Under the pieces are notes generated by a model that did not search any database, had not been told where the DNA came from, and saw only the letters and a program-made list of their open reading frames with translations. From assembly GCF_003019035.1 (NCBI RefSeq), contig NZ_CP027447.1: a stretch of 64,000 nt of DNA, one strand, 5' to 3'. Source of the DNA: Escherichia coli. GTDB taxonomy: Bacteria; Pseudomonadota; Gammaproteobacteria; Enterobacterales; Enterobacteriaceae. Positions 44,786 to 47,771 of the stretch are shown one piece after another (position 1 is the stretch's first letter; the number at the start of each line of letters is the position of its first letter). The translations under genes were made by a program, and so were the position numbers.

Positions 44786-45952
44786 TTAATCCATCTCCAG
44801 CTCATCAAACAACTGCAAATCTACATCCAGCAATTCCACTGCATTGCTGCGGCGAATGCCGACGTTATTTTCGATTAACAGTTCCAGTAAGCGATCGCCG
44901 TCGATAAGCGTAATGGGCGCGGCCCCCGGAAAGAGCGCCGCTTCTGCACATTTCGCTGCAAATTTCCCGGTGGTGATGAGCGTACCGCGAATGGCCTTGT
45001 GGTAAGGCAACGCTCCGCGCAACTGGTCGATATACGGTCGAGTGATGGTGTTCTGCATTCTTTTGACCTGCACCACTTCGGTAATAGTGGTGATGCCGAC
45101 CTGCACCTGACCAATCACGTCCACACCTTTATCGCCTGAGGCTTTGGTCACTTCGACCTGCTCGTAGCCCATTGCTTCCAGTAATTGACCGACCAGTTGT
45201 TCAAATTTGTACGGGTTCATCGTGCTGATTTGTTCGCGCAGCAGCTCTTTTTGCTGTTCGTTATAGCGTTTTACCGCTTCCAACAGCTCTTTACGCGGAT
45301 CGCTTTTTCGTGCAGGCAACGCTTTTCCAAGCCAGGCGCGCCCGGTATCGGTGATGCGATAGCTCATGCCTTCACGGTTAACCATGTCACGGTCGATAAG
45401 GTTATAGAGACGGGAGTAGAGCGTGCTTTTCACTGAACTTGCTGACGCGAATTTCGAATGCTGATGCAAAAAGGCCTGCCATTCCGGCAATAAATCGGCG
45501 CGGCGCGACATTTCCCGGCCAGCCAGCAGCTCAAGCAGTTGCAGAATGCCTTCCTGGTCGTCCAGTGAACGCAGCGTTTTTTCGTCATCTTGCAGGAATT
45601 TTTGCCCGCGCGAGGTGGGCTGCCAGGTATCGTCTGGCGTGCTTTCCATCAGCTCAAACTGGGGATAGTTGAGGAATAAGTAGCAGCCGTAGCTGTGGCG
45701 CGGGTTCAATATGTGATTATCGGTATCCCAAATACGACGGGCGATGTCGGCATCTTCACCCGTTAAGCGTTCGCTGATCCACAGGTCAGGTTCCGACCAG
45801 TCAACGGGTTTTTGCGGCGTTCCGGTTTGCTCGTGAATGGCAGTAATCATATTGCGCACCGCTTTCAGGGAATAGCCTGAGACGGCTTTCATCATAGCCT
45901 TAACTTGCGCATAGGTAGGAAAAAGCGGGGTAATGACTTTGTAGTTTTTCAC
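44786..45952 (-). CDS. Mrr-like restriction endonuclease family protein (extended N-terminal region + Mrr-type PD-(D/E)xK catalytic domain)
   Basis: 388 aa; C-terminal third carries Mrr-catalytic-like blocks (GDKGVDVIG ... VQVKR ... GTLITTGKF ... LIDGD); N-terminal ~240 aa have no K-12 Mrr counterpart. GTG start preceded by AGGGA; 63 bp upstream of hsdM on the same strand. Confidence 0.65.
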   Translation of the reverse strand: MKNYKVITPLFPTYAQVKAMMKAVSGYSLKAVRNMITAIHEQTGTPQKPVDWSEPDLWISERLTGEDADIARRIWDTDNHILNPRHSYGCYLFLNYPQFELMESTPDDTWQPTSRGQKFLQDDEKTLRSLDDQEGILQLLELLAGREMSRRADLLPEWQAFLHQHSKFASASSVKSTLYSRLYNLIDRDMVNREGMSYRITDTGRAWLGKALPARKSDPRKELLEAVKRYNEQQKELLREQISTMNPYKFEQLVGQLLEAMGYEQVEVTKASGDKGVDVIGQVQVGITTITEVVQVKRMQNTITRPYIDQLRGALPYHKAIRGTLITTGKFAAKCAEAALFPGAAPITLIDGDRLLELLIENNVGIRRSNAVELLDVDLQLFDELEMD

Positions 45953-46105
45953 GGTAATCCCTTAACGACAGCGAGGTGTTTAGTGTGCCATGTCAGGCGA
46001 GAAATTCTATTGGATGAATCAAGTCCAACTCACACATTGTCAATTTCATGGTTGATTATTCGAAACGTGATGCTATTTCCAACATCAACGCTATAATTGC
46101 AGAAT

Positions 46106-46135
46106 AATTGTACATACATTTTTGTATATACAATT
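46106..46135. promoter_or_regulatory. Near-perfect 13-bp-arm palindrome (candidate operator / -10 region) upstream of the brnT remnant
   Basis: AATTGTACATACA-TTTT-TGTATATACAATT, with one mismatch between arms and an internal perfect palindrome TTGTATATACAA, ending about 14 nt before the brnT ATG; typical of an autoregulated TA promoter. Confidence 0.45.
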
Positions 46136-46148
46136 AGGGATGGCAACT

Positions 46149-46277
46149 ATGCCAATGGAGTTTGAATGGGATGCAAATAAGGCCAAAGGTAATCGGGTGA
46201 AACATGGCATCCGCTTTGAAGATGCGGTGTTAGTGTTTGATGATCCACAACGAACGGAATCGCTATGAGCATGGTTA
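46149..46277 (+). pseudogene. Truncated BrnT-like (DUF497) ribonuclease toxin remnant
   Basis: Translation MPMEFEWDANKAKGNRVKHGIRFEDAVLVFDDPQRTECYEHG* has the conserved DUF497 N-terminus (FEWD..K...N..KHG..FE.A..VF.DP) but stops after 42 codons, against about 90 aa for intact BrnT toxins. Confidence 0.5.
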
Positions 46278-46567
46278 AACATAAACGAGGGACCTCCTCT
46301 ACACTCGATGTGCAGCATGAGGCCGAACTGAAGGCGCTGGCGAATAAATCCGACGAAGATATTGATTACAGTGATATCCCACCTTCCAGCGATGAGCAAT
46401 GGTCTAACGCAGAACGCGGTAAGTTTTATCGGCCATTGAAAACTCAGGCCTCGGTGCGTATTGATTCTGATGTGATGGAATGGTTGAAGCGACCAGGTAA
46501 AGGCTATCAAACTCGCCTGAACGCAATTTTACGTGAAGCGATGCTGCGCGATCAGAACAAAAAATAA
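46265..46567 (+). CDS. BrnA-like antitoxin (CopG/RHH-related, COG3514-type), apparently intact
   Basis: 100 aa; C-terminal GKFYRPLKTQASVRIDSDVMEWLKRPGKGYQTRLNAILREAMLRDQ matches the conserved BrnA antitoxin signature (GYQTRINAILR); overlaps the 3' end of the toxin remnant. Confidence 0.6.
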   Translation: MSMVKHKRGTSSTLDVQHEAELKALANKSDEDIDYSDIPPSSDEQWSNAERGKFYRPLKTQASVRIDSDVMEWLKRPGKGYQTRLNAILREAMLRDQNKK

Positions 46568-46589
46568 TTCAGGCCGCCACATGGCGGCC
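46559..46589 (-). terminator. Putative rho-independent terminator of yjiA
   Basis: Perfect 7-bp stem GGCCGCC/GGCGGCC, followed on the minus strand by TGAATTATTTTTT, just downstream of the yjiA stop. Confidence 0.5.
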
Positions 46590-46600
46590 ATCATCCAAAA

Positions 46601-47557
46601 TTACTTCCTCAACCCCGCAAACGCCGCCCGAATCTCATCCTCCGGCAGCTGAATCCCGATAAACACCATCGTGCTATGCGGTTTTTCATCGCCCCATGGC
46701 CTGTCCCAGTCGGCGCTGTAGAGGCGCTGGACACCCTGGAACAGCAGGCGATTAGGTTCGCCGTCAATCCATAGCATCCCTTTGTAACGCAGTAGTTTAT
46801 CCGCCGACTCCAGCAGCAGGTTTTCCATCACGCGGGAAACTTCGCTGATATCTACCGGGTAATCCAGTTCCACCACAATCGACGAAATATCGTTTTGTTT
46901 GTCCGCGATAAAGTGGAAACGCGGTTTGGTGCTGACGACGTTCTCTTCCAGCATAAAACCGTTGGTGTTGAACAGCAGGCCCAGGTCGATGTCGCCGTGG
47001 GTGACGGTGTAGATCGGTGCACGGGCGTTGATGCGCGCCAGGCGTTCACGCAGTTTTTCTGCTTCGCCTGCGACGTCGGTTTTAGTCAGCAGAATACGGT
47101 CGGCGTAGCCAACCTGTGACTGGGCGATGGTGAACTGGTTCATCTGCTCATCGGCATGTACCGCATCCACCAGCGCAATCACGCCGTCCAGCAGGTAACG
47201 CTGGCATAAAATCTCATGGGAGAAAAAGGTCTGAATAATCGGGCCGGGATCGGCCATGCCGGTGCATTCAATCACCAGACGGTCGAACTGAATATTGCCC
47301 TTGTCGAGATTATCCAGCAGGTCGAGTAGGGCGTCTTCCAGCTCGTTGGAGCGCGAACAGCAGATGCAGCCGTTGGTCAGCGTTTTGATCTGCGTGACGC
47401 GATCGCCAATCAGTTGATCATCAACGGAGACTTCGCCGAATTCGTTTTCAATCACGGCAATCTTGTAGCCGTGTTGTTCGTTAAGAATATGGCGCAGCAG
47501 GGTGGTTTTGCCGGCGCCTAAAAAACCGGTGAGTAGGGTAACTGCAATCGGGTTCAT
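46601..47557 (-). CDS. yjiA: CobW/P47K-family GTPase YjiA (zinc-associated G3E GTPase)
   Basis: Matches K-12 YjiA from MNPIAVTLLTGFLGAGKTTLLRHILNEQHGYKIAVIENEFGEVSVDD...; GCICC metal-binding motif; the track ORF has a 28-codon extension that is not used. Confidence 0.9.
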   Translation of the reverse strand: MNPIAVTLLTGFLGAGKTTLLRHILNEQHGYKIAVIENEFGEVSVDDQLIGDRVTQIKTLTNGCICCSRSNELEDALLDLLDNLDKGNIQFDRLVIECTGMADPGPIIQTFFSHEILCQRYLLDGVIALVDAVHADEQMNQFTIAQSQVGYADRILLTKTDVAGEAEKLRERLARINARAPIYTVTHGDIDLGLLFNTNGFMLEENVVSTKPRFHFIADKQNDISSIVVELDYPVDISEVSRVMENLLLESADKLLRYKGMLWIDGEPNRLLFQGVQRLYSADWDRPWGDEKPHSTMVFIGIQLPEDEIRAAFAGLRK

Positions 47558-47567
47558 GCTCTCTCCA

Positions 47568-47771
47568 TTAACAACAGCGCATACCGCCTTTACCATCGCC
47601 GCCGTAGCGCGCGTTCTGGCGTTCGCGGAAGAATTCTTCATAGCTCATGTACGGCTTGTCGGGATGGTTGGTCTTCATATGCTCGACGTAGTTGTCGTAG
47701 TCTGGAATGCCAATCAACATCTTCGCCGCCTGGCCGAGATATTTTTTTGCCTGTCCTAAGTTACCAAACAT
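47568..47771 (-). CDS. yjiX: DUF466 small protein YjiX (BtsT-associated)
   Basis: 67 aa ([67 protein letters not shown]); lies 10 nt upstream of yjiA and downstream of btsT, as in K-12. Confidence 0.85.

Follow-up and report, generated by a model that had tools for sequence, protein, structure and literature searches.

In the window, which here denotes the whole 64,000-nucleotide stretch of Escherichia coli DNA that was analyzed, a small two-gene unit, brnT'-brnA, lies with a type I hsd cluster and an Mrr-family gene on one side and yjiA (46601 to 47557) on the other (Table 1). RefSeq/PGAP labels its two genes "BrnT family toxin, incomplete, missing C-terminus" and "BrnA antitoxin family protein" and treats the former as a pseudogene; the same label for an incomplete BrnT is carried by the locus of SCU-301, which is 99.8% identical to the window. 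The initial annotation had read this segment, between the hsd cluster and yjiA, as a toxin gene cut short and a complete antitoxin gene preceded by a palindromic operator, and the Pfam matches, the alignments and the neighboring genes all agreed with that core reading. The hairpin between the convergent brnA and yjiA scored as a terminator on the minus strand, that is, for yjiA, and it may also stop brnA transcription. A 139-aa ORF antisense to brnA (46091 to 46510) was treated as spurious, and an Rfam scan of 45500 to 47000 returned chance-level matches only (E ~0.5), with no sign of an RNA element. For yjiA itself, the program-made ORF list starts at an ATG farther upstream and arrives at 346 aa (46601 to 47641, minus strand), and RefSeq gives 318 aa.

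Table 1. Features of the brnT'-brnA locus and its borders, in window coordinates
Feature	Coordinates	Strand	Basis
brnT' pseudogene	46149..46268	+	Pfam match, alignment with intact alleles, RefSeq annotation
Deletion junction	46251..46257	+	Alignment with intact alleles
brnA, intact, 100 aa	46265..46567	+	Pfam BrnA_antitoxin full model; RefSeq WP_000063158.1 "BrnA antitoxin family protein"
TATAAT, perfect -10 hexamer, probable brnT'A promoter element	46092..46097	+	Read directly; conservation
32-bp inverted repeat, probable BrnA operator	46105..46136	.	Arm complementarity; cross-genus motif
GC-rich hairpin between convergent brnA and yjiA	46572..46589	.	7 GC pairs; T-run on minus strand only
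388-aa Mrr-family restriction endonuclease, divergent neighbor, outside the module	44786..45952	-	Pfam Mrr_cat E = 3.8e-29; RefSeq "restriction endonuclease"

The remnant ORF runs from the PGAP start (ATG 46149) to a TGA at 46266 to 46268 and encodes 39 aa, MPMEFEWDANKAKGNRVKHGIRFEDAVLVFDDPQRTESL, made up of 34 native codons followed by 5 out-of-frame codons (RTESL). The stop codon of this ORF shares bases with the brnA ATG at 46265 (ATGA). The initial annotation had described this ORF as one of 42 codons, opening with the BrnT N terminus and ending early, and had proposed a DUF497 profile search, in which a lack of similarity would speak against that reading, together with an alignment to intact brnT. 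The count of 42 codons holds from an alternative in-frame ATG at 46140, and the Pfam model BrnT_toxin PF04365 (formerly DUF497) matched the remnant with E = 4.1e-8, over model positions 1 to 30 of 77 only. The alignment located the lesion: relative to the intact SE15 locus, a single 158-column gap follows window position 46251, the last collinear base, and the net loss of 158 nt corresponds to nt 104 to 261 of the 288-nt brnT and, with the accompanying frameshift, removes codons 35 to 87. Consistent with this, 31 of the 34 native residues are identical to those of SE15 BrnT, and a tblastn search with intact BrnT placed residues 1 to 34 at 46149 to 46250 and the last 8 residues at 46252 to 46275 in another frame, while revealing no further brnT copy in the 64-kb window. 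At the junction, deletion alleles read GAACGG and intact alleles GAGAGG. A clean microhomology deletion was considered and rejected, since the GAACGG filler matches neither intact allele exactly; the junction would be accounted for either by one deletion plus two substitutions or by a small compound event.

In Brucella BrnT, residues D6, E7, K9, R41 and E78 are required for RNase activity (PMC5086665). Mapped through an alignment with PDB 3U97, these positions correspond to D8, E/A9, K11, R48 and E88 of the E. coli protein. The remnant retains the N-terminal motif and is devoid of R48, E88 and most of the beta-sheet, from which we infer that it is unable to act as an RNase toxin; BrnT' would thus represent a pseudogene fragment of PF04365 rather than a functional member of the family. 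With its toxin gene truncated and frameshifted, the locus is not a functional type II module.

The antitoxin gene has fared differently. The initial annotation had reported a full-length BrnA ORF overlapping the remnant and bearing the string GYQTRLNAILR; the string was found, and Pfam BrnA_antitoxin PF14384 matched over its entire length (E = 6.5e-17, model positions 1 to 68 of 68, residues 37 to 93). By this profile match, the window BrnA is a full member of PF14384. In NCBIfam, neither BrnT nor BrnA nor the remnant matched a family, and the 388-aa neighbor gave only noise. Residues 14 to 57 of BrnA aligned with chain B of PDB 7VD7 (E = 1.3e-16; 33 of 44 residues identical), an entry whose chains, deposited as "toxin" and "antitoxin," are identical at 93 of 94 and 43 of 44 positions, respectively, to the Salmonella proteins; judged by this identity, 7VD7 is essentially the Salmonella ortholog of the locus described here. 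Because the antitoxin chain was co-crystallized with the toxin, we assign residues 14 to 57 as the toxin-binding segment. A literature search for 7VD7 and STM4528 yielded nothing relevant. BrnA has been described as a ribbon-helix-helix (RHH) antitoxin, with the RHH assigned to its C-terminal part (PMC11980606), and as a repressor that controls transcription of its own brnTA operon (PMC11980606, PMC5086665). In the C-terminal half, a single replacement, A68S, sets the window allele apart from the others. The Shine-Dalgarno sequence preceding brnA is weakened in the window (CGGAA versus GAGAGGA in intact SE15), and the output of BrnA is therefore uncertain.

Upstream of the remnant, the initial annotation had noticed a 30-bp near-perfect palindrome overlapping a -10-like TATA(T/C)A sequence. 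The palindrome is real and lies directly upstream as described, but it measures 32 bp, with arms of 14 nt each (46105 to 46118 and 46123 to 46136) that are complementary at 13 of 14 positions around a 4-nt spacer, and it resolves into two copies of a conserved 10-mer. These self-complementary 10-bp sites, TGTACATACA (46109 to 46118) and TGTATATACA (46123 to 46132), are spaced 14 bp center to center. The placement of the -10 element did not stand: the best candidate is the TATAAT at 46092 to 46097, just upstream of the palindrome, and not the TATATA within its right arm. Each of the nine E. coli alleles in the comparison retains this hexamer, as does Salmonella, while the flanking bases differ. 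No convincing or canonical -35 element was seen upstream of TATAAT, and a sigma-70 promoter scan returned no plus-strand site, since the -35 region fails the scan criteria, and two minus-strand hits, no more than expected by chance. At the expected -35 position, a block, TGATGCTATTTCCAACA (46068 to 46086), is conserved with Salmonella (TGAAGCTATTTCCAACA) and is unlike TTGACA; it may be a noncanonical promoter element or some other binding site.

Exact TGTATATACA occurs once in the 64-kb window; when one mismatch is allowed, the window has three sites, and two of them are those of the palindrome. We compared the 140 bp upstream of brnT at nine loci from eight genera whose BrnT proteins are 58 to 85% identical to that of E. 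coli, namely, the window, the Salmonella chromosome and plasmids of Klebsiella aerogenes, Xenorhabdus, Salmonella, Xylella, Moraxella, Acinetobacter and Iodobacter. All nine carry TGTATATACA between -42 and -22 relative to the brnT start, five exactly, three with one mismatch and one with two mismatches. An unbiased count of shared 8-mers ranked TATATACA at the top (seven of nine loci), and in a shuffle test on the six best loci, 0 to 10 of 5,000 shuffles matched the observed score. Both 10-mers are perfect in the Salmonella operator region, where the palindrome pairs at 14 of 14 positions, and the K. aerogenes plasmid has one additional copy, degenerate and equally spaced. Given that BrnA is described as an RHH repressor of its own operon and that the motif is conserved, the TGTATATACA sites very probably constitute the BrnA operator, positioned over the transcription start.

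Several deletion alleles have changed in this region: L002 carries a G-to-T substitution in the right site, L004 a T-to-C substitution just outside the sites, and L006 (E. coli E-1246, ~1625 to 1650; window 46093 to 46110) an 11-bp deletion between direct repeats ATAATTG...ATAATTG, which puts TATAAT directly against the operator; 114 genomes share the L006 junction haplotype. Such changes hint at relaxed constraint, which would argue against maintained autoregulation.

Comparison with known relatives placed the window locus within an established family. Intact E. coli brnTA, as in SE15 (ECSF_RS22835/22840) and Ecol_867 (BE928_RS23445/23450), occupies the same locus with the same promoter and operator region and is 97 to 98% identical to the window in DNA outside the gap, with BrnA identical or differing by 1 to 4 residues; the window, in contrast, lacks brnT nt 104 to 261 and is frameshifted. 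In Salmonella enterica, STM4528/STM4529 lie at the orthologous position (mrr-brnT-brnA-yjiA), with identities to E. coli of 85% for BrnT and 83% for BrnA, and this pair is intact with mrr alongside, whereas the toxin of the window is broken. The founding members of PF04365 and PF14384 are Brucella abortus BrnT and BrnA (Heaton et al. 2012, as related in PMC5086665 and PMC11980606). That pair shares with the window a toxin-first order and an antitoxin assigned to the RHH class, and the Brucella complex autorepresses (PMC5086665, PMC11980606); Brucella BrnT (PDB 3U97) is a functional toxin and is distant from intact E. coli BrnT (E = 1.6e-4). The same two-gene architecture is also found on plasmids (Acinetobacter pAB0057, K. 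aerogenes p35_E, Salmonella p28NP3 and Xenorhabdus XD_p), where the TGTATATACA motif stands 22 to 26 bp upstream of brnT, as at the window. Unlike the window locus, however, these plasmid modules are intact, with BrnT 58 to 72% identical, and presumably serve plasmid maintenance.

The immigration control region is the variable segment between yjiA and yjiN (PMC12707154). In K-12, the gene adjoining the 3' end of yjiA is mrr, and the interval between these two genes contains a REP-like element but neither brnTA nor any vestige of it; the idea that K-12 might keep a brnA trace there was checked and found unsupported. The initial annotation had placed the module in the slot where K-12 has mrr. 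This is correct insofar as both adjoin the 3' end of yjiA, but the two are not interchangeable, as Salmonella possesses both (hsdR-mrr-brnT-brnA-yjiA) and the window has an Mrr_cat gene of its own beside the remnant. We therefore regard brnTA as the yjiA-proximal edge of the island and not as an alternative to mrr. In SE15 and UMNK88, the island is otherwise "empty" (mdtM-IS1), and brnTA is still intact. There (SE15, L001 3288 to 3985; UMNK88, L019 2605 to 3302), an IS1 next to mdtM replaces the whole immigration control region and meets the conserved sequence upstream of brnT at the equivalent of window position 45966.

Three observations concern the surroundings of the module. The 388-aa protein sits between hsdM and brnT', with Mrr_cat at its C terminus and 240 N-terminal residues lacking a domain assignment, and possibly represents a type IV enzyme associated with the type I system beside it. 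The gene order in the window, RE-hsdM-hsdS-hsdR, is unlike that of K-12. Farther away, a 1,746-aa ORF (19395 to 24635, minus strand) is missing from the corresponding position of SCU-301, a strain nearly identical in other respects.

All E. coli counts given here refer to a set of 5,426 complete genomes. A megablast search with 45960 to 46600 recovered the locus in 2,112 of them, mostly as two-piece matches spanning ~795 bp versus 641 bp. A 54-nt junction-spanning query of the window type matched 103 genomes, and the corresponding query from the diverged deletion allele L006 matched 176, 114 of these at 99% identity or more. L006-type junctions could not be seeded by the window-type query; the union of both amounts to at least 217 genomes, in agreement with the 223 genomes (2,112 - 1,889) in which the locus is present and the deleted segment wholly absent. 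The junction is identical in L002, L004, L005, L006 and the window, SNPs differ on both of its sides, and the deletion alleles encode four different BrnA proteins. Together, the same odd junction, the flanking SNPs and the four BrnA variants point to an allele that originated only once and later spread and recombined. All five deletion alleles compared adjoin the same 388-aa "restriction endonuclease" (Mrr_cat), and type I hsdM is also present beside the deletion allele wherever the stretch extends far enough. Ecol_867 contains the same cassette with an intact brnT whose first 34 codons are identical to those of deletion allele L005, which indicates that the deletion arose within this cassette. 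The cassette of this single origin would be the one that combines this type I hsd system with the gene for the 388-aa Mrr-family protein.

The window type is one of several states of the locus in this genome set. Intact brnTA was found in ~1,781 of the 5,426 genomes, the 158-nt deletion in ~217 to 223, and no trace of brnTA in 2,809. In a further ~108 genomes, a deletion begins immediately past TTTCCAACAT (window ~46086) and extends to the final ~50 nt of brnT; TATAAT and the operator are gone, and brnA lies intact beside GmrSD and Fic genes. This second deletion type stops exactly at the 3' edge of the block TGATGCTATTTCCAACA described above, and in KK05-19 (L007 1400 to 1550) and Ecol_244 (L008 1440 to 1590) the promoter-to-brnT deletion fuses brnA downstream of Fic-family and GmrSD genes. 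Another ~505 genomes have a 63-aa "antitoxin" fragment beside an EcoAI-type hsdR. Inspected in 07_3636 and EC100 (L017 and L018, 2501 to 2692), the 63-aa ORF corresponds to the N-terminal, toxin-binding part of BrnA at ~79% DNA identity, without the DNA-binding half; it adjoins yjiA, and upstream of it lie a gene for a 322-aa multi-pass membrane protein and the EcoAI-type hsdR. In CE0021a (L021 3501 to 3777), an 11-bp deletion frameshifts brnT (GACAATCGGCCTGGTTTACGG to GACATTACGG) with brnA intact, a third independent inactivation. As read from these alleles, no fewer than four independent events at this locus removed or disrupted the toxin and spared brnA or a part of it. Loss of the toxin first is the expected order of decay, because loss of the antitoxin first would be lethal.

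From these data, we conclude with good confidence that the window locus is a decayed chromosomal brnTA type II toxin-antitoxin system, located where the E. coli immigration control region borders yjiA. It is an ordinary decay state of a known system, and the family, the locus and the exact pseudogene allele are already in public annotation.

Could the orphan antitoxin nevertheless be kept by selection? BrnA might act in trans, either neutralizing a plasmid BrnT, the anti-addiction role raised in the initial annotation, or repressing the promoters of incoming brnTA modules that bear TGTATATACA. Chromosomal anti-addiction modules are a concept reportedly put forward by Saavedra De Bast et al. 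in 2008, and, like those modules and other orphan antitoxins, the window locus has a chromosomal antitoxin without a working cognate toxin in a family that also resides on plasmids. The brnA ORF was intact in all eight alleles examined, with pairwise pN/pS values of 0.03 to 0.37 and a nearly invariant C-terminal DNA-binding half, and at least three independent losses of the toxin left brnA in place. Among deletion alleles, brnA polymorphisms comprised 5 nonsynonymous and 8 synonymous changes (binomial P = 0.002 versus neutrality), and L007 and L008 differed by 1 nonsynonymous and 10 synonymous changes. This nonsynonymous deficit could mean that BrnA is still useful rather than a passive remnant. 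We rejected pN/pS among orphan alleles as proof of selection, however, as the junction sits on several brnA haplotypes that also occur at intact loci, and recombination with intact alleles is therefore evident. Orphan BrnA proteins are identical to intact-locus ones (WP_000063156.1 and WP_000063148.1), so the low pN/pS may be inherited from, or recombined in from, intact alleles, and the constraint on brnA cannot be dated to after the loss of the toxin.

A target for such trans action was sought as well. The operator 10-mer is common to the plasmid brnTA modules of Klebsiella, Xenorhabdus, Salmonella and Acinetobacter, and an operator shared between chromosomal and plasmid brnTA of Gammaproteobacteria makes regulatory cross-talk in trans conceivable. 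Plasmid BrnT proteins in enterobacteria are 45 to 72% identical to E. coli BrnT, and small enterobacterial plasmids encode BrnT at 70 to 72% identity; for plasmid BrnT at 70% identity or below, cross-neutralization is uncertain. Near-identical BrnT was found in only three or four "plasmid" records, two of which exceed 650 kb and are probably chromosomal, and a search of a phage collection revealed essentially no close BrnT on real phages. An 85% BrnT match in that collection proved to be a Salmonella chromosomal contig filed there. E. coli genomes showed no second brnTA-like locus (median of 1 and at most 2 places per genome), and ~505 genomes keep merely the RHH-less fragment and 2,809 keep nothing. 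The anti-addiction concept has been discussed for E. coli orphan antitoxins in a survey in which BrnT/BrnA is not mentioned (PMC10790755). On balance, selective retention of orphan BrnA for a role in trans appears unlikely, and we consider it quite unlikely that BrnA represses the promoters of incoming brnTA plasmids and/or neutralizes their BrnT and in this way weakens plasmid addiction at the border of the defense island.

A function of the 39-aa BrnT' peptide itself, as a leader ORF for coupled brnA translation or as a BrnA-binding decoy, is very improbable. The overlap of its stop codon with the brnA start and an ORF open in all five deletion alleles compared would fit such a role, but the overlap is a by-product of the frameshift, the private changes of the remnant are mostly nonsynonymous (4 versus 2 synonymous, including D8N at the catalytic-equivalent site), and the ~108 genomes with the larger deletion keep brnA with neither remnant nor promoter. 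That the truncation is a sequencing or assembly artifact and the brnT of this strain actually intact, a correction that the initial annotation had named as a possible undoing of its reading, has next to no probability, as 158 nt rather than one base are absent and no fewer than 217 complete genomes, assembled independently by different laboratories and from different hosts, show the identical junction.

We thus return to decay of a chromosomal brnTA module as the preferred reading. The original promoter probably still yields a brnT'-brnA transcript and is probably still repressed by BrnA dimers at the pair of palindromic sites that closely follows the -10 element, and the ATGA overlap may continue to couple BrnA translation to the short ORF. 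A module with a dead toxin would no longer cause postsegregational killing or growth arrest, and no current function needs to be invoked. For the candidate BrnA operator consensus (TGTATATACA with 14-bp spacing), we found no prior description, and it is easy to test. To the known system, the present survey adds a population picture, that of toxin-first decay of a toxin-antitoxin locus at the boundary of the immigration control region.
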